Positions 11,531 through 46,947 of a DNA stretch of 64,000 bases are shown here, piece by piece (position 1 is the stretch's first letter; each line of letters opens with the position of its first letter). Source of the DNA: Escherichia phage vB_EcoM-G28. Under the pieces are notes generated by a model. It saw only the letters and a list, made by a program, of their open reading frames with translations, had not been told where the DNA came from and made no database searches. The stretch lies in sequence record NC_054916.1; one strand, given 5' to 3'. The position numbers and the translations under genes were made by a program.

Positions 11531-12001
11531 TTAATCATGTTTCCACACCCCATCGGTATTTGACCAAAGTCGCTGATTATCTGAACCTCGCCACAGCTTT
11601 TTGGTCGGAAGATTTTTCTCATACTTCCCATCAATAATAACATCAACATATTTAAGCATTTCTAGTTGTTTAATATCTTCAAACTTATATCCTGTCCACA
11701 ACCAAATGCTTTTATTGGGATAAAGATTTTTAATAGTTTGAACCACAGAGTGAATCACGTCTCTGTTATCAGGATAAAGAGGGTCTCCTCCAGTTATAGT
11801 TAATCCTTCTATATAATCATTATTCAAACATTCAATTAATTGCTCTAGTGTTTCACCAGTGAATGGAATGCCATTTCTAGCATTCCATGTTGATTTATTA
11901 TAACACCCTTCACATTTATGCAAACAACCTGTAACGAAAAGAACGACCCTGCAACCAGGGCCATTCACAAAATCGCAAGGATAAAATCTATCATAATTCA
12001 T
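11531..12001 (-). CDS. nrdG: Anaerobic ribonucleotide reductase activating protein (radical SAM)
   Basis: 156 aa; CxxxCxxC radical SAM cluster motif (GCLHKCEGC). Confidence 0.95.
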   Translation of the reverse strand: MNYDRFYPCDFVNGPGCRVVLFVTGCLHKCEGCYNKSTWNARNGIPFTGETLEQLIECLNNDYIEGLTITGGDPLYPDNRDVIHSVVQTIKNLYPNKSIWLWTGYKFEDIKQLEMLKYVDVIIDGKYEKNLPTKKLWRGSDNQRLWSNTDGVWKHD

Positions 12002-13815
12002 TGGTGTTTAACCCTATGCATGATTTCTTTATTTTTACCGAGATTAAATCCGCGTTCGTTCGGATTTCCCAAATAACCACATGTTCTTCTTATTGTGTTC
12101 ATCTTTTTAGGATCAGTTTCTCCACAAATAGAACAAACAAATCCGCTTTCAGTAGGAGTCATTTCATGGGTACTTCCGCATGTAAAACATTTATCTACCG
12201 GCATGTTAACACCAAAATAATCTAAATGTTGTGCAGCATAATCCCATACGGCCTCAAGACCCTTTAAGTTATTTTTCATATCAGGAAGTTCAACATAAGA
12301 AATGTGACCACCTGTCGCAATGAAATGATATGGTGCTTCACGAGAAATCTTTTCAAACGGAGTAATATTTTCTTCTACTGAAACATGGAAACTGTTAGTG
12401 TACCAGCCTTTATCTGTAACATCTTTTACGCTTCCATATTTTTCTGTATCGAGTTTACAGAAGCGATAACAAAGGTTTTCAGCAGGAGTCGAATATAAAC
12501 TAAAAGCAAAACCGGTTCTTTGAGTCCACTGCTTAAGATGAGCATTCATTTTAGTTAAAATTTCTTGTCCAATATCACGACCGACAAGAATATTCAATTC
12601 GTGAATACCAATGTATCCTAAAGACACTGAACTTCTACCGTTTTTAAATAACTCAATTATGTCGTCATCAGGTTTAAGACGAACCCCGAATGCACCTTCT
12701 TGGTAAAGAATAGGAGCAACAGTCGCTTTAACTCCTTTTAAGGAACTAATTCTACACATCAAAGCTTCAAAACATAAATCCATTCGTTCATTGAATAATT
12801 CGATAAATTTCTGTTCATTGAACTGTGTTCCAATATAAGAATCTAACGCGATGCGAGGAAGATTTAATGTTACAACACCGAGATTATTACGTCCATCAAG
12901 AATTTCATTACCGGTTGAATCTTTCCACACACTCAAGAAACTACGACAACCCATTGGAGAAACAGGAATAGATGAGCCGGTGATAGCTTTATTGTTCTTA
13001 GCTGAAATAATATCAGGATACATTCTTTTGCTTGCGCACTCTAGAGCAAGCTGTTTAATATCATAGTTCGGATCGTCTTTATAAAGATTAACACCTTCTT
13101 CAACGAACATAACAAGTTTAGGGAAAATAGGAGTTATCCCATCACGACCAAGACCTTTAATACGATTTTTCAGAATTGCTTTCTGAATCATTCGTTCAGT
13201 CCAGTCAGTTCCTGTACCAAATGTAATTGTTACAAAAGGTGTTTGTCCGTTTGAACTAAAGAGAGTATTTACTTCATATTCATAAGCTTGGAATGCATCG
13301 TATACATCTTTTTCTGTTTTAGATTGAGCATAATTCAACGCATCAGCGATTTGCCATTTTTCTGCATCCTCAATATGTTTTGCATAGGTGCGTTTAACAT
13401 AAGGAGAAAGTACTTTATCTACATTCGCAAAAGTCGTTCCGCCGTATTGGTGAGAAGCAACTTGCGCAGTAATTTGTGCCATAATTGCAGTAGCAACTCC
13501 AATTGATTTAGGAGTTTCAATCTGCGCATTACCTAGCTTAAATCCGTTTTCAAGCATTCCTTTTAAATCTACTAAACAGCAATTAGTAAATGGAAGAGCA
13601 GGGGAATAATCAATATCATGGAAATGAATAATTCCGCTTTCATGCGCTTTCATAATAAAAGACGGGACCATATTTTTGGCAATGTGTTTAGACACAATAC
13701 CAGCCATAAGGTCCCGTTGAGTTGGAAAAACACGAGAATCTTTATTAGCATTCTCGTTTAAAAGGTCTTTATTAGTTTTATGAATCAATCCTTCAATTTC
13801 TTTTTCAATTGTCAT
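11998..13815 (-). CDS. nrdD: Anaerobic ribonucleoside-triphosphate reductase, uninterrupted
   Basis: 605 aa continuous ORF; C-terminal zinc ribbon CFTCGS...CSICG and glycyl radical region RRTCGYLG. Confidence 0.95.
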   Translation of the reverse strand: MTIEKEIEGLIHKTNKDLLNENANKDSRVFPTQRDLMAGIVSKHIAKNMVPSFIMKAHESGIIHFHDIDYSPALPFTNCCLVDLKGMLENGFKLGNAQIETPKSIGVATAIMAQITAQVASHQYGGTTFANVDKVLSPYVKRTYAKHIEDAEKWQIADALNYAQSKTEKDVYDAFQAYEYEVNTLFSSNGQTPFVTITFGTGTDWTERMIQKAILKNRIKGLGRDGITPIFPKLVMFVEEGVNLYKDDPNYDIKQLALECASKRMYPDIISAKNNKAITGSSIPVSPMGCRSFLSVWKDSTGNEILDGRNNLGVVTLNLPRIALDSYIGTQFNEQKFIELFNERMDLCFEALMCRISSLKGVKATVAPILYQEGAFGVRLKPDDDIIELFKNGRSSVSLGYIGIHELNILVGRDIGQEILTKMNAHLKQWTQRTGFAFSLYSTPAENLCYRFCKLDTEKYGSVKDVTDKGWYTNSFHVSVEENITPFEKISREAPYHFIATGGHISYVELPDMKNNLKGLEAVWDYAAQHLDYFGVNMPVDKCFTCGSTHEMTPTESGFVCSICGETDPKKMNTIRRTCGYLGNPNERGFNLGKNKEIMHRVKHQ

Positions 13816-14285
13816 TTTAAACTCTTTCTAAGCTGCTTCTTAAATGAAGCTATTAACTGTGTTTTGGTGTCAGATTCATTATATTCAAATCCTCTTTGAA
13901 GCATCTCGGCCATCATTTCCTCTTTTCCTAAACGAGAAAATTCCTTTGATTTATCTCCAACAAAGTTAGGGTGAATATTATTTTGGGTGTAATCGGATTT
14001 TAAATAAGTAAGTAAATTTTCTAACCATTCAAGATAATCAACACCTTGTCCCTTTAAGCCAGAACGATTAAATTTATGCTTCATTTGACCTTCTGCGGCA
14101 TTGCAGAGATTACAAAGCAATCCACGTACCTTTCCAGCTTTCGGTCCGTTTAATTCATGGTCATGGTCGAGGTGATTAGCTTGAACATCAGGATTTAGTT
14201 CTCGTTGGCAAATTAAGCATTTACCGTTTTGCGCATCATAAAATTTCTGTTTTTCTTCTTTATATAATTTGCCAGTCAATAACAT
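13812..14285 (-). CDS. 49: Endonuclease VII (Holliday junction resolvase) gp49
   Basis: 157 aa; CLICQ...HLDHDHELNG...CNLCN motifs as in T4 endo VII. Confidence 0.95.
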   Translation of the reverse strand: MLLTGKLYKEEKQKFYDAQNGKCLICQRELNPDVQANHLDHDHELNGPKAGKVRGLLCNLCNAAEGQMKHKFNRSGLKGQGVDYLEWLENLLTYLKSDYTQNNIHPNFVGDKSKEFSRLGKEEMMAEMLQRGFEYNESDTKTQLIASFKKQLRKSLK

Positions 14286-28651: not shown

Positions 28652-28839
28652 TATTCTTCTACATGTTGTTTACGACCTTTCTTATCAATAAAGGTATATT
28701 CAACGAATGTTCCAATGTAGTCTTTATCTACATCGTGTGGACTATTAATTGGACATTTAGTACGGCAAATGCGTTCCCATTGACGAATAATTACTGCTTT
28801 GTTTTTAGGATCAAACGGATGCGGGTAATGTACTTTCAT
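28627..28839 (-). CDS. Hypothetical protein (70 aa)
   Basis: ORF in track. Confidence 0.45.
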   Translation of the reverse strand: MKVHYPHPFDPKNKAVIIRQWERICRTKCPINSPHDVDKDYIGTFVEYTFIDKKGRKQHVEEYCLKVTWL

Positions 28840-29290
28840 AATCCACCACTATTAAATCAATATCAGGAGTAAACATGTCGATTAATTTAGAAACCTTATC
28901 CCAATCGCCGCCAGCAATACCACAACCTATGCGTGGAATGTAAATTACCGGTTTAAACAAAAGGGTTTCTGCCTGTAGATTTAATTCTATCATGCAGTTT
29001 ACTAAAGCACCATAATCAAGATTAGGACCTGGTTCGTATTGCGTATACAAGTTATAACATATGCCAAAACCATTAGGTTTATGTTTAAAAACAATAGACA
29101 TATCGCCTAATTTATCACGAGAACCGTACTCAGTAGTGGTTTTATCTATTTCTAAAATTTTGGGATAGGCTCTTGCTAATTGACCAGCTACACCACTGCC
29201 CATTGTATGAAAACAGTTACACCCATGCGCAATAATATTACCTTCAAGAAAGAGGGCGACAATATCGCCCTTGATATATTTTACAATCAT
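28811..29290 (-). CDS. Macrodomain protein (TARG1/OARD1-like ADP-ribose-binding fold)
   Basis: GDIV...AHGCNCFHTMGSGVAGQL and IPRIGCGIAGGDW motifs align with macrodomain signature segments. Confidence 0.65.
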   Translation of the reverse strand: MIVKYIKGDIVALFLEGNIIAHGCNCFHTMGSGVAGQLARAYPKILEIDKTTTEYGSRDKLGDMSIVFKHKPNGFGICYNLYTQYEPGPNLDYGALVNCMIELNLQAETLLFKPVIYIPRIGCGIAGGDWDKVSKLIDMFTPDIDLIVVDYESTLPASV

Positions 29291-30179: not shown

Positions 30180-30641
30180 TCATTGAGTTTTAATTACTGC
30201 TTTAGAAGCCTTTCCTGGTAAACGACGACTGTTAATAATTGCCATCCTGCACTGAAGCGACGGGTCTTTGAACTTCGCATTAGGTTTACAAACTGTAAAT
30301 CCAAGCCAAAGATTTCCATCTGTGATTTCTAAACGTCCAGGACGGTATTCAACCCCATCAATAAAATCCTCGTCAATGTCAGGACGCGGAGGCATACTCA
30401 GGAATTCATTAACTTCTAAAACATGGTCTTTTATTTTGTGGAATAATTCAAAAACATATGTCTCATCAATCTCCCGTTGAATTGCACGATCAAGAAGATG
30501 CTGAGAATATTTTAGATGAAACGATGAGACTCCTGCTGCTTTTGATGCCTCACGAATCTCATTGTTAATTTGACGAAACTCCGACTCAAAGTGACGACGG
30601 AGCTTATTTCGACGGATAAAAACTTCTGTGTTGATAGTCAT
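30180..30641 (-). CDS. regB: RegB-like site-specific endoribonuclease
   Basis: 153 aa, same size and position as T4 RegB; sequence not independently verified. Confidence 0.65.
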   Translation of the reverse strand: MTINTEVFIRRNKLRRHFESEFRQINNEIREASKAAGVSSFHLKYSQHLLDRAIQREIDETYVFELFHKIKDHVLEVNEFLSMPPRPDIDEDFIDGVEYRPGRLEITDGNLWLGFTVCKPNAKFKDPSLQCRMAIINSRRLPGKASKAVIKTQ

Positions 30642-30700: not shown

Positions 30701-30979
30701 TTATTCTTTAAATCTGATCAATTTATTCATAGACTTTGAAACTTCTGCACGAACCTCATGTAAGTTTTTAAGCTGTTCAAGACGCTGTTCATAGTAAGCA
30801 ATTTCATCTTCTTCGAGACAGTCCTGTGAATCTTCTTTAAGATAGCGTGCATAGTCCTGGAAAGCTTTACGGACTACTTCCTGGAAGTCATCAAGACTTT
30901 GAATTTTCTTAGGAGCGGCAGATACACGACGAGGGGCAGTATAATACTCATAACCAAACCCTGCACTTAATTGAGCCAT
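30701..30979 (-). CDS. Hypothetical protein (about 92 aa), vs.3 position
   Basis: ORF trimmed to internal ATG overlapping the upstream stop. Confidence 0.45.
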
Positions 30980-31245
30980 TAGTATTTTTCCTCTGGTTGG
31001 AACACAGCACGGCAAGCCCACATACTTGCTTCTTTGAGTTTCGTTTTAGCAATAGTTAACTGATCGAGGCTTTCGGCGTAATTCTTCGCGAGTTCATCAT
31101 CTTCACAGCTATCAAATGCTTCCCAGAATTCATCGTATAAAGCGTCAAAGATAAGTCCCAAACGAACTTCAGCGTCTTTGATAGCATTCACTTTACCGAT
31201 TTTCTCTTCAGTATGCGGCTTATAACCCTTAATATCTTCAATCAT
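30979..31245 (-). CDS. Small helical protein (about 88 aa) at the vs.4 position; candidate Acb2-like cyclic-nucleotide sponge
   Basis: Position (second gene after regB) and size only; ATG with GAGGA SD. Confidence 0.35.
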
Positions 31246-31459
31246 ATTTAACTTCCTCACCAGTACATAAATCGTATTCAACTAAACGAATAGGTTCATG
31301 AATGCCATATCCCTGAACAGAAATTTCTGTCGTAGGATAAATTCCATCAATATCACCCATATTCCAGGCTTCATTAAATTGCTGTTCGCCTGAATTACTA
31401 AACCACTCGGCGAAAGCATTTAGTACATCTTTAGAACCTTCAATAATTATCTTTGCCAT
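31238..31459 (-). CDS. Hypothetical protein (73 aa)
   Basis: ORF in track. Confidence 0.45.
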   Translation of the reverse strand: MAKIIIEGSKDVLNAFAEWFSNSGEQQFNEAWNMGDIDGIYPTTEISVQGYGIHEPIRLVEYDLCTGEEVKYD

Positions 31460-31821
31460 TATAAGCTCTCAGTAAAGGTACGAGCGATAACGTCGCGCTG
31501 CTGTTCCGGAGTCAGAGAGTTAAAGCGAACTGCATAACCTGATACACGGATGGTCAGCTGCGGATATTTTTCCGGATGCTTAACTGCATCTTCCAGGGTT
31601 TCACGACGCAGAACGTTAACGTTCAGGTGTTGACCACCTTCAATTTTAACTGTAGGCTGTGTTTCAATTTCAATTTCACGGGCGTGCAATCCATAGAAAA
31701 TTTCCGGGTCTACAAAAGAGTCCTCTTTAAAGGTTTTAGAGACAATAATTCGTGCTTGAATACCATCTTCAAAATAAATAGTACCTTTATGTGTGCCTTC
31801 AAGAATTTGATATGCTTTCAT
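31459..31821 (-). CDS. Autonomous glycyl-radical cofactor (GrcA/YfiD-like)
   Basis: C-terminal about 60 aa ([56 protein letters not shown]) carries the RVSGY glycyl-radical motif and matches E. coli GrcA as I recall it. Confidence 0.8.
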
Positions 31822-31828
31822 ATAAACC

Positions 31829-32161
31829 TCAATTAGAAAATAAATTTATCCAAGATTGTTCTTTAATTAAAAATGGCTCAGAATCATATGCCATTAAACT
31901 TTGGGTGATTAGTCCTTTAAAAGGTCCATCAATAAATTCCATGGTAAAATATGGAATTTTATTCATTAGCCGTGCATTAGGAGCAGTACATAAAACTCTG
32001 CATCCTTTGAATACACCCTTTTGTAATTTGTATTGCTTGGGATAAAATTCGCTCAAAATGTTATTATTTGCTAAAATTTCAAAATGATTCACCAATTTAT
32101 TTTTAATAGTTTTTGGCGAAAAATAGAGATATTCGAAAAGCTGTGTGTCTGTCATCATTGC
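31829..32161 (-). CDS. Hypothetical protein (about 110 aa from MMTDTQ)
   Basis: ORF trimmed to ATG overlapping the upstream double stop. Confidence 0.45.
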
Positions 32162-32694
32162 ATTCCGATTACGAAAAACTGTGGACGAGTAATACCACCA
32201 ATACAACATTTAATATTACAGCAGCAGTGTACAGTGTCAATATGGACACTATAAATCTTATCCATATCAGGAGATTTGACAGGCTCATCAATTATATACA
32301 AAATTCGCGAAAGCGATAAACCTCTGAACTTACTTCCTTTATTACCAATAAAACTGCGTACAGAATCAGTAAATAAACGAAAACGTATATCATCATTAGA
32401 ATAACGCGAAAATTCCTTTTTGATGTTATTTGCAGAAATTTTAGCATAAGCTGAAGTATTAGAAAGAACAATAACTGTTCCGCCATCATACAACCAATTA
32501 GCAGCGAAGTTAGTCACAGCAATTGATTTACCGGATTGACGTCCACCATCTAGTCGAAGTGTGCAATACTGTTTAAGTAAGTCTTCAAATGGCGGGATAT
32601 ATTCGTTTTTACAAATTTCTTCTACTCTAGCATCAGAATGGTGTGTAAAAGCATTCATCAGGGATAGATAAGGACCAGTTAAAAATGTTCTCAT
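32155..32694 (-). CDS. Small P-loop NTPase with C-terminal cysteine cluster (about 179 aa from MRTF)
   Basis: Walker A GGRQSGKS, Walker B-like LYIIDEP, C-terminal HCCCNIKCC. Confidence 0.55.
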   Translation of the reverse strand: MRTFLTGPYLSLMNAFTHHSDARVEEICKNEYIPPFEDLLKQYCTLRLDGGRQSGKSIAVTNFAANWLYDGGTVIVLSNTSAYAKISANNIKKEFSRYSNDDIRFRLFTDSVRSFIGNKGSKFRGLSLSRILYIIDEPVKSPDMDKIYSVHIDTVHCCCNIKCCIGGITRPQFFVIGMQ

Positions 32695-32835
32695 TTTGTT
32701 CTCTCTAGGTTTGGGCCATTCCATGGCGCATGAATTGTCCATTTCTGTATTTACCCATTACCGCACTTGGGCTCGACCTTATTACAGGTTGGCGGGAATC
32801 CCTTATAGAATCATAAGGTCCAGGTTGTTCCCATA

Positions 32836-33309
32836 TTATTTGAACGATTTAACGTACTGAATAGAACCTTTACTATTTACAAAGGCAATTTTACCATTTT
32901 TATTATACATGGTAGCAGTACGTTGATAGCCATAAGTTTGTTTACCAGATTGATAACCAACTAATGCGAAATTATCTTCACCCATTTTATTCTGTTTAGC
33001 GCGAATGCGTTCATGACCATGTGCCATAAGAACCTTAGCATCACCAGTTGCAATGGATCGACGAGTTTTTTCATCTTCAACTGTATTAACAAAGTCGTCA
33101 AATGAATCAAATTTAGCATGAGATTTATTATACAATTTTCCATCTACTGCATAATTATATCCCTGTACATCCATCTCAACTTCTGTACCATCATCCAATA
33201 CAGCAGTGATTTTTTGACCTTTTTTAAATTTCAAAAGATCAGTAAAAGATTCAGCAATAATTTGAGAATTAATAGCTGCTTCAGTGATAAATTCTTGATA
33301 TGTTTTCAT
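32836..33309 (-). CDS. Internal (capsid-packaged) protein with capsid targeting sequence
   Basis: N-terminus MKTYQEFITEA matches the T4 internal-protein capsid targeting sequence; ipII/ipIII position next to e. Confidence 0.7.
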   Translation of the reverse strand: MKTYQEFITEAAINSQIIAESFTDLLKFKKGQKITAVLDDGTEVEMDVQGYNYAVDGKLYNKSHAKFDSFDDFVNTVEDEKTRRSIATGDAKVLMAHGHERIRAKQNKMGEDNFALVGYQSGKQTYGYQRTATMYNKNGKIAFVNSKGSIQYVKSFK

Positions 33310-33362
33310 ATATTTCCTTTAAATATTTTAATTAGCAATTTGTCTCTTCAAGCAACTGTGAA

Positions 33363-33393
33363 TATACTATCACAATTCTAGGAGAAAGTAAAC
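33363..33393 (-). promoter_or_regulatory. Early promoter (GTTTAC, 18-nt spacer, TAGTAT) for the internal protein gene
   Basis: Conserved early-promoter repeat. Confidence 0.55.
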
Positions 33394-33397
33394 AACT

Positions 33398-45236: not shown

Positions 45237-46947
45237 TAACCTTAATTGGTTTGTCGGTGTTGTTGAAGATAGAATGGACCCATTAAAATTAGGTCGTGTT
45301 CGTGTTCGTGTGGTTGGTCTGCATCCACCTCAAAGAGCGCAAGGTGATGTAATGGGTATTCCAACTGAAAAATTACCATGGATGTCAGTTATTCAACCTA
45401 TAACTTCTGCAGCGATGTCAGGAATTGGAGGTTCTGTTACAGGACCAGTAGAAGGAACTAGAGTTTATGGTCATTTTTTAGACAAATGGAAAACTAACGG
45501 AATTGTCCTTGGCACGTATGGTGGAATAGTTCGCGAAAAACCGAATAGACTTGAAGGATTTTCTGACCCAACTGGGCAATATCCTAGACGTTTAGGAAAT
45601 GATACTAACGTATTAAACCAAGGCGGAGAAGTAGGATATGATTCCTCTTCTAACGTTATTCAAGATAGTAACTTAGACACTGCAATAAATCCCGATGATA
45701 GACCACTATCAGAGATTCCAACCGATGATAATCCAAATATGTCAATGGCTGAAATGCTTCGCCGTGATGAAGGATTAAGACTAAAAGTTTATTGGGATAC
45801 CGAAGGATATCCGACAATTGGTATTGGTCATCTTATCATGAAGCAGCCAGTTCGTGATATGGCTCAAATTAATAAAGTTTTATCAAAACAAGTTGGTCGT
45901 GAAATTACTGGAAACCCAGGTTCTATTACAATGGAAGAGGCGACGACTTTATTTGAGCGTGATTTGGCTGATATGCAACGGGACATTAAATCACATTCTA
46001 AAGTAGGACCAGTCTGGCAAGCTGTCAACCGTTCTCGTCAAATGGCATTAGAAAATATGGCATTTCAAATGGGTGTTGGCGGTGTAGCTAAATTTAACAC
46101 AATGTTAACTGCTATGTTAGCCGGAGATTGGGAAAAAGCATATAAAGCCGGTCGTGATTCATTGTGGTATCAACAAACAAAAGGCCGTGCATCCCGTGTT
46201 ACCATGATTATTCTTACGGGGAATTTGGAATCATATGGTGTTGAAGTGAAAACCCCAGCTAGGTCTCTATCAGCAATGGCTGCTACTGTAGCTAAATCTT
46301 CTGACCCTGCTGACCCTCCTATTCCAAATGACTCGAGAATTTTATTCAAAGAACCAGTTTCTTCATATAAAGGTGAATATCCTTATGTGCATACAATGGA
46401 AACTGAAAGCGGACATATTCAGGAATTTGATGATACCCCTGGGCAAGAACGATATAGATTAGTTCATCCAACTGGAACTTATGAAGAAGTATCACCGTCA
46501 GGAAGAAGAACAAGAAAAACTGTTGATAATTTGTATGATATAACAAATGCTGATGGTAATTTTTTGGTAGCCGGTGATAAAAAGACTAACGTCGGTGGAT
46601 CAGAAATTTATTACAACATGGATAATCGTCTTCACCAGATAGATGGAAGTAATACAATATTTGTACGTGGCGATGAAACTAAGACAGTTGAAGGTAATGG
46701 AACTATCTTAGTTAAAGGTAATGTTACTATTATAGTTGAAGGTAATGCTGACATTACAGTTAAAGGAGATGCTACCACTTTAGTTGAAGGAAATCAAACC
46801 AATACAGTAAATGGAAATCTTTCTTGGAAAGTTGCCGGGACAGTTGATTGGGACGTTGGTGGTGATTGGACAGAAAAAATGGCATCTATGAGTTCTATTT
46901 CATCTGGTCAATACACAATTGATGGATCGAGGATTGACATTGGCTAA
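45220..46947 (+). CDS. 5: Baseplate hub / tail lysozyme gp5
   Basis: 575 aa; central lysozyme domain MAEMLRRDEGLRLKVYWDTEGYPTIGIGHLI; C-terminal beta-helix repeats VEGNGTILVKGNVTIIVEGNADITVKGD. Confidence 0.96.
   Translation: MEMISNNLNWFVGVVEDRMDPLKLGRVRVRVVGLHPPQRAQGDVMGIPTEKLPWMSVIQPITSAAMSGIGGSVTGPVEGTRVYGHFLDKWKTNGIVLGTYGGIVREKPNRLEGFSDPTGQYPRRLGNDTNVLNQGGEVGYDSSSNVIQDSNLDTAINPDDRPLSEIPTDDNPNMSMAEMLRRDEGLRLKVYWDTEGYPTIGIGHLIMKQPVRDMAQINKVLSKQVGREITGNPGSITMEEATTLFERDLADMQRDIKSHSKVGPVWQAVNRSRQMALENMAFQMGVGGVAKFNTMLTAMLAGDWEKAYKAGRDSLWYQQTKGRASRVTMIILTGNLESYGVEVKTPARSLSAMAATVAKSSDPADPPIPNDSRILFKEPVSSYKGEYPYVHTMETESGHIQEFDDTPGQERYRLVHPTGTYEEVSPSGRRTRKTVDNLYDITNADGNFLVAGDKKTNVGGSEIYYNMDNRLHQIDGSNTIFVRGDETKTVEGNGTILVKGNVTIIVEGNADITVKGDATTLVEGNQTNTVNGNLSWKVAGTVDWDVGGDWTEKMASMSSISSGQYTIDGSRIDIG

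Follow-up and report, generated by a model that had tools for sequence, protein, structure and literature searches.

A T4 vs.6 ortholog in Escherichia phage vB_EcoM-G28, a very probable GrcA-type spare part for pyruvate formate-lyase with a host-derived 3′ half

The vs.6 locus and its neighbours

The window analysed here is a 64,000-nucleotide stretch (64 kb) of the genome of Escherichia phage vB_EcoM-G28 (NC_054916.1). The gene of interest, vs.6, belongs to a packed string of genes on the minus strand and stands alone, with separate ORFs on both sides and without a GRE barrel. The features of the locus are given below.

31459..31821, minus strand: ortholog of vs.6 (Y06I), putative GrcA-type autonomous glycyl radical cofactor, 120 aa, 13.8 kDa (ORF and profile matches)
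31644..31821, minus strand: 5′ half of phage type (nt 1-178 of the gene; residues 1-59), with 44% nucleotide identity to E. coli grcA
31459..31643, minus strand: 3′ half, apparently derived from the host (nt 179-363 of the gene; residues 60-120 and the stop codon), with 97.8% nucleotide identity to E. coli grcA
31534..31548, minus strand: RVSGY glycyl-radical motif, residues 92-96 (direct sequence reading and alignments)
31827..31830, minus strand: Shine-Dalgarno-like GAGG, 5 nt ahead of the vs.6 ATG (sequence reading)
31238..31459, minus strand: vs.5 (ORF list; full-length match to phrog_1986)
31829..32209, minus strand: vs.7, directly upstream of vs.6 in the same gene string, 99% identical to T4 Vs.7 (phrog_2049)

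The vs.6 ORF starts with ATG at 31821-31819 and ends with TAA at 31461-31459 on the minus strand. Its radical glycine, G95, is encoded by GGT at 31539-31537 and is the counterpart of G102 in GrcA and G734 in PflB. Upstream, the GAGG sequence overlaps the stop codon of vs.7 (TGA, 31829-31831). Downstream, the ATG of vs.5 overlaps the stop codon of vs.6 (TAATG), and hence the ribosome-binding region of vs.5 lies within the last codons of vs.6. A scan for promoters and terminators around vs.6 gave no excess of sites (10, against 11.0 +/- 3.1 in shuffled sequence), and the TTGACA-16-TAATAT found by the promoter scan at 32240-32213 (minus strand) is a candidate promoter site only. The gene regB lies at 30180-30641 on the minus strand, with vs.5, vs.4 and vs.3 standing between it and vs.6. 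Since both genes are on the minus strand, vs.6 is transcriptionally 5′ of regB; the position "downstream of regB" given in the original prediction is wrong in the sense of transcription and applies to plus-strand coordinates only.

Alignment of the window protein with T4 Vs.6 (14 kDa; Swiss-Prot Y06I; NP_049730; NC_000866 63557-63919, 363 nt; RefSeq label 'autonomous glycyl radical cofactor GrcA'), a comparison that the original prediction had proposed, showed identity at 118 of 120 residues (98.3%), with the substitutions T54P and R73H (R73H in T4). The order vs.5-vs.6-vs.7 is common to the window and T4, flanking genes are 88-100% identical to those of T4, and vs, vs.1, regB, vs.3, vs.4, vs.5, vs.7, vs.8, e and nudE of the window are all recognisable against T4. 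Like the window protein, T4 Vs.6 comprises 120 aa and has the same neighbours, with regB three genes further on, and the T4 gene shares the stop/start overlap with vs.5 and the E. coli-like 3′ half. The T4 gene differs in carrying TCC, where the window has TCA, at the codon of GrcA Ser101, and both alleles occur in E. coli. Judged by identity and gene order, the window gene is the ortholog of T4 vs.6, that is, the same gene rather than a mere homologue, and the earlier statement that T4 carries a homologue (Y06I) was right about the relation but understated it. T4 vs.6 has been annotated as GrcA and PFL rescue by Y06I has been reported, so that neither the gene nor its characterisation or annotation is new.

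The gene is widespread. The 8 kb around vs.6 are 96-97% identical to many Tequatrovirus genomes, and one record, that of Escherichia phage NiC89, has the vs.6 gene at 100% identity. The window protein matches phrog_1209 over positions 1-121 of 121 (E 5.4e-63), and the gene matches 1508 phage records from Straboviridae, Demerecviridae and Vibrio jumbo phages. Nolan et al. (2006; PMC1524935) found vs.6 in 6/6 of the T4-like genomes that they compared.

Other genes of the window also gave observations. The vs.4 ortholog, two genes from vs.6, occupies 30982-31245 on the minus strand and is 95% identical to T4 Vs.4, and the ORF tool gave 30979-31281 from a TTG start. It matches the Pfam Acb2/Tad1 hairpin domain (E 1.2e-19), a family named for phage anti-CBASS/anti-Thoeris cyclic-nucleotide sponges. 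The vs.5 product has 73 aa in the window and matches phrog_1986 end to end, whereas the 58-aa T4 annotation aligns with it in two frames, switching after residue 17; from this alignment the T4 form of vs.5, not that of the window, looks like the odd one out. Residues 1-41 and 26-219 of T4 Vs.8 also align in two frames, to 32684-32806 and 32158-32742 (minus strand). The longest ORF starts from 32742, and on this alignment vs.8 of the window has, compared with T4, either a frameshift or a shortened N-terminus. Between vs.8 and e, where T4 has denV, ipII and ipIII, the window (32743-33397) has a single 157-aa ORF at 32836-33309 (minus strand). Its product has matches to DUF7412 and to phrog_3155 ('internal virion protein') and begins with MKTYQEFITEA, a sequence similar to the N-terminus of ipII; no homologs of denV and ipIII were found anywhere in the 64-kb window. 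The ortholog of tk.4 (macro/A1pp domain; 28826-29290, minus strand) is only 58% identical to that of T4, whereas identity is 99-100% for the neighbouring genes tk, vs and vs.1, and tk.4 is apparently either locally replaced or fast-evolving. The region at 45739-46236 (plus strand) is a second one similar to T4 lysozyme e (43% protein identity) and presumably represents the lysozyme domain of gp5, the baseplate hub protein. Another 157-aa ORF, at 13812-14285 (minus strand) directly upstream of nrdD, carries Cys and His residues in an HNH-like pattern (CLICQ...HLDHDH...CNLCN); in size and position it presumably fits T4 gene 49 (endonuclease VII).

Relation to GrcA and pyruvate formate-lyase

The C-terminal half of the window protein is that of a bacterial GrcA. 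Residues E61-L120 are identical to E. coli GrcA 68-127 at all 60 positions, with the RVSGY motif intact and G95 present, which bears out the earlier claim of a match almost residue for residue. BLASTP against E. coli GrcA gave 73/100 identities (E 3e-52), and the solved E. coli GrcA structure (PDB 6owr) was matched with E 4.6e-42, a similarity much greater than chance would give. Family membership was assessed with TIGR04365/IPR011140 for GrcA, phrog_1209 for Vs.6 and TIGR01255 for PFL. The score for Pfam Gly_radical was 67.2 bits (E 2.2e-18), compared with a cut-off of 22.2. The NCBIfam GrcA model TIGR04365 (spare_glycyl) gave E 1.4e-45, but its 154.6 bits miss the curated equivalog cut-off of 170 because the N-terminal half has diverged. 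For pyruvate formate-lyase proper (TIGR01255), only profile positions 680-744 of 744 were matched, with 89 bits against a cut-off of 994, and 49 of 63 C-terminal residues (78%) are identical to PflB 697-759. According to these profiles and alignments, the window protein is a diverged phage branch of the GrcA family and not a canonical bacterial GrcA. The core of the original prediction, a phage-borne spare part of the GrcA/YfiD type related to T4 Y06I, agrees with them.

In its layout the window protein resembles E. coli GrcA (YfiD, 6OWR), which is also a stand-alone protein of ~14 kDa with an RVSGY radical loop as well as a helix region at the C-terminus. Between window residues 61-120 and GrcA residues 68-127 there is no amino-acid difference, and the DNA identity is 97.8%. 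In contrast, the N-terminal half of the window protein is 7 residues shorter and ~33% identical, and the window protein is expressed from a phage gene string, whereas E. coli GrcA is expressed from the host grcA promoter. The radical domain of PflB (697-759; PDB 1H16, 2PFL), the part that a spare part replaces, is likewise similar to the window protein, radical loop included. Unlike PflB, however, the window protein has neither the 10-stranded barrel nor the catalytic cysteines, and is therefore no enzyme by itself. An AlphaFold2 single-sequence model of the window protein had a mean pLDDT of 35 and was uninformative.

The N-terminal half had been described as 55 phage-specific residues. It is indeed strongly diverged, but it is homologous to GrcA. 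When the N-terminal 60 aa alone were compared with GrcA 1-67, residues 22-60 aligned to GrcA 28-67 with 33% identity over 40 residues (E 6e-6), and a MAFFT alignment of 13 phage and 6 bacterial proteins was collinear from the first residues. In this alignment, the phage N-region is ~7 residues shorter than the bacterial one, and blocks common to both are M..xQI, GS[IF][WY]L.D, AR..V.K, ED and RE.x[IV]E..P. On this alignment evidence, the N-terminal half of the phage protein represents a GrcA N-region that has diverged, with a homology that is weak but real. The 5′ half has dN/dS of about 0.05-0.3 between phage genera, and values are well below 1 in both halves. In the other virulent phages compared (Jiaodavirus, Karamvirus CC31, Pseudotevenvirus RB43, Slopekvirus KP15, T5-like Demerecviridae and Vibrio jumbo phages), the homologs share the two-part layout of the window protein and the N-terminal motif MKAYQIL...GTIY...R.IVSK, and their radical domains are 77-100% identical to it in protein.

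The function of such proteins is known from work on PFL. Two spare parts have been validated, YfiD and T4 Y06I, as PMC8683613 states with reference to Wagner et al. (2001; PMID 11444864); both receive a radical from PFL-AE and restore activity to O2-cleaved PFL. The earlier claim that Y06I can rescue oxygen-damaged PFL is in line with these experiments, which were done in vitro (Wagner et al. 2001, through PMC8683613). In YfiD, residues 61-127 are a structured domain that copies PFL 693-759 and docks into cleaved PFL, and residues 1-60 are disordered, improve binding and activation and are dispensable for catalysis (PMC8683613). The N-terminal half of the window protein is only 33% identical to that of GrcA, and hence its quantitative behaviour with cleaved PFL may differ.

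Orthology and the sequence identity of the radical domain are established for the window protein. From T4 Y06I we infer that it may also rescue PFL, and a benefit in vivo during infection is presumed. According to our model, oxygen would meet active host PflB and cut its chain at the radical glycine G734. The phage C-terminal domain (identical in sequence to GrcA 68-127 and 78% identical to PflB 697-759) would replace the lost radical domain, the host activase PflA (radical-SAM) would put a new radical on G95, and formation of acetyl-CoA and formate from pyruvate would resume. A phage copy would in this way sustain the supply of fermentative ATP, acetyl-CoA and formate in the micro-oxic gut. 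We count as evidence for function the conservation of vs.6, namely an intact ORF with its GAGG site, presence in 6/6 T4-like genomes and in 1508 records, and dN/dS <1. In the literature searched, no report of a vs.6 deletion phenotype was found, and no linkage to pfl or nrd genes was seen in the gene neighbourhoods of T4-like, T5-like and Vibrio phages.

The window protein might also act on fermentation without repairing anything, either as a decoy that titrates PflA or as a binder of intact or inactive PflB or of TdcE that remodels fermentation. The N-terminal half, which is the recognition part in YfiD, has diverged strongly (33%) and yet has been kept among phage genera under purifying selection, and its divergence could mean a shifted binding specificity. 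However, T4 Y06I is reported to reconstitute cleaved PFL as YfiD does (PMC8683613), and the radical domain has been kept identical to the functional one of the host, with its glycine intact. We therefore regard such a non-repair effector as unlikely, and repair of cleaved PflB as the preferred function.

The original prediction also suggested support of anaerobic nucleotide synthesis, and the genes that it named for this at 11531-13815 are both present: NrdG at 11531-12001 and NrdD at 11998-13815, each on the minus strand. NrdD, too, is cleaved by oxygen at its radical glycine, and vs.6 could in principle provide a spare part for it that is activated by NrdG. Encoding of NrdD and NrdG in the same window, the match of both NrdD and the vs.6 protein to Pfam Gly_radical, and the speculation of Nolan et al. 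2006 on a role in nucleotide metabolism (PMC1524935) speak for such a service. However, BLASTP of the window protein against NrdD of the window found no significant similarity; the best alignment (E 3.7) was weak and lay off the Gly loop. The motif is RVSGY in the one and RRTCGYLG in the other, and the radical domain is identical to that of host GrcA and 78% identical to that of PflB. Moreover, vs.6 lies ~18 kb from nrdD and its T5-like and Vibrio homologs are not beside nrd genes (in one T5-like phage and one Vibrio jumbo phage they stand among tRNA and hypothetical genes, with no nrd link), and the tract discussed below has been repeatedly replaced by host grcA and not by nrdD sequence. A direct service to NrdD is thus highly improbable. 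What is left of the suggestion is an indirect tie through formate: most class III reductases that have been characterised use it as their reductant, and a site for it has been proposed in T4 NrdD (PMC4493059). A connection of vs.6 with NrdD through formate made by PFL is plausible.

The mosaic of phage-type and host-type DNA

The two halves of vs.6 differ in their relation to the host chromosome. Only gene nt 179-363 match E. coli genomes, at 97.8% in all 5426 of them. A maximum chi-square break falls after gene nt 178 (window 31644|31643), with a contrast reached by 0/2000 permutations; identity to E. coli grcA rises from 44% ahead of the break to 97.8% beyond it, and the similarity ends at the stop codon. 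Codons are the same as in E. coli grcA at 57 of 60 positions in the 3′ half, compared with 5 of the 13 positions with identical amino acids in the 5′ half (Fisher p 1.3e-5). Composition changes at the same time. GC is 0.34 in the 5′ half (0.347 in the window) and 0.49 in the 3′ half, equal to that of E. coli grcA, and GC3 is 0.22 in the 5′ half, as in the rest of the window, and 0.43 in the 3′ half, compared with 0.42 in E. coli grcA.

Conservation of the protein does not explain this identity of DNA, because the same 60 residues are identical in GrcA of Serratia, Pantoea and Edwardsiella. Synonymous sites nevertheless diverge: over codons 61-117, dS between E. coli and the window is 0.023, compared with 0.048 between E. 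coli and another Escherichia species, 0.38 between E. coli and Citrobacter and 1.13 between E. coli and Salmonella. For the phage genes of CC31, RB43, KP15 and T5 type, dS to E. coli over the same codons is 1.2-2.5, that is, saturated. The small value for the window against the larger bacterial distances indicates E. coli, or a bacterium very closely related to it, as the source of the tract. Between the window and Mosigvirus JS09, dS is 0.55 in the 5′ half, which tracks phage phylogeny, and 0.10 in the 3′ half, suggesting that the tract either is of later date than the gene or has passed between T-even phages of E. coli.

The tract of the window and E. coli differ at four sites. Three of the four are in the last 10 nt, the ribosome-binding region of vs.5, and are absent from every E. 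coli genome compared; the fourth, ACC at Thr75, is likewise found only in phages. The synonymous TCA/TCC alternative at Ser94 is polymorphic in both E. coli and phages. TCC occurs in 4816 E. coli genomes, and among phages TCA is found in the window and in one further locus (L086), and TCC in T4 and most others. Transfer from phage to host was considered and rejected, since bacterial alleles follow genus relationships, the tract has the GC and GC3 of the host and the chromosomal loci keep ung-grcA synteny. An assembly chimera was also rejected, since the same junction is present in 631 independent phage records. In the literature searched, which did not reach as far as Wagner 2001, Bowman 2019 and the 2003 T4 genome review, we found no earlier description of the mosaic.

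A fragment of host DNA gained by recombination might be a neutral passenger without function in the phage, and the 3′ half is indeed host DNA by both composition and identity. Several observations oppose this reading. The gene is intact and full length, and its 1508 phage records extend across Straboviridae, Demerecviridae and Vibrio jumbo phages. Its 5′ half is of phage type and under purifying selection (the dN/dS of about 0.05-0.3 given above), the tract of the window has not accumulated nonsynonymous changes, and a frameshifted vs.6 was seen in only one IMG/VR contig. A functionless passenger is accordingly very hard to maintain, and we keep to a functional gene with a host-derived half.

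Host-type DNA is not confined to phages of E. coli. When whole E. coli grcA was compared with phages, 631 records of E. coli/Shigella T-even phages matched at 95-99% and Klebsiella phages at 86-88%; in all 631 the match is confined to grcA nt 199/200-384, without ever reaching into the 5′ half. With Klebsiella-type grcA, 106 records matched at 95-99%, the matches listed all being Klebsiella phages, and E. coli phages matched at 85-88%. With Salmonella grcA, no tract above 90% identity was found among phages. In Klebsiella Jiaodavirus (JIPh_Kp122 and an IMG/VR contig), GC is 0.57 in the 3′ half versus 0.36 in the 5′ half. A metagenome scan yielded chromosomal grcA loci of the Klebsiella clade, with ung upstream as in E. 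coli. The Jiaodavirus tract differs from them at 1-3 positions in the first 157 nt and then at 8-9 in the last 23 nt, and E. coli grcA differs from these loci throughout. The E. coli-derived tract is found only in Tequatrovirus and Mosigvirus, whereas Jiaodavirus has a Klebsiella-type tract. A third lineage that tracks its host was looked for and rejected, since genes of CC31, RB43, KP15, 44RR and T5 type are synonymously saturated against every bacterial grcA sampled.

In the Jiaodavirus-like IMG/VR contig UViG_2974754850 (L108), the vs.6 homolog at 1501-1862 is frameshifted in its 5′ half, near locus nt 1625-1640. Its Klebsiella-type 3′ tract is out of frame with the start codon, which reflects either a sequencing error or a pseudogene.

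Two host-specific tracts with one left boundary imply at least two conversions from host to phage. Comparison of these sequences gives good support to a pattern of two events, with an E. coli donor for Tequatrovirus and Mosigvirus and a donor of the Klebsiella clade for Jiaodavirus. In the simplest explanation of the common left boundary, the homology on which recombination can act would end there. On this reading, vs.6 is old in virulent enterobacterial phages and its 3′ half has been overwritten by host grcA DNA. We lean towards the view that the radical-domain half of vs.6 is repeatedly overwritten by grcA of the current host, that is, towards gene conversion in phages that are strictly lytic and degrade the DNA of their host. 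Such conversion may be either selected, by matching to PflA, PflB or GrcA of the host, or merely permitted by an unusual conservation of DNA.

Protein variants of host GrcA were also compared in a KP15-like phage (L099), a Jiaodavirus (L163) and RB43 (L098). Despite saturated synonymous sites, the KP15-type Klebsiella phage has LLDAVEH, as in GrcA of Klebsiella and Salmonella, and the E. coli phage RB43 has LEDAVKH, as in GrcA of E. coli. Such variants give hints of selection for host matching, or of older conversions that have since decayed.

Implications for annotation and for host-phage recombination

We consider it very likely, on the evidence above, that vs.6 of the window is the ortholog of T4 Vs.6 and a stand-alone GrcA-type spare part for cleaved PflB, with a 3′ half overwritten by host DNA at least twice. 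As an identification of a gene this is nothing new, since Y06I was shown to be a PFL spare part in 2001 and the name GrcA stands in RefSeq and in hundreds of phage records. Annotation of the family is nevertheless uneven. PHROGs v4 labels phrog_1209 'unknown function', and many phage records call the product 'hypothetical protein', 'pyruvate formate-lyase' or 'ribonucleotide reductase subunit'. Thus, the annotation of the Vs.6/GrcA family could be improved, both in PHROGs and in the phage records of GenBank.

Recurrent conversion of the radical-domain half is a modestly interesting evolutionary footnote. The mosaic, together with the reciprocal host matching in phages of E. coli and Klebsiella, offers a clear case from nature in which a gene of a lytic phage has been renewed from the chromosome of its host, and may be used for the study of host-phage recombination and of host history. 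A further question that it poses is whether strict identity with the radical domain of the host is selected. Should conversion still be taking place, the tract would serve as a natural marker for the hosts that a phage has recently had, and homeologous recombination between host and phage would become measurable.
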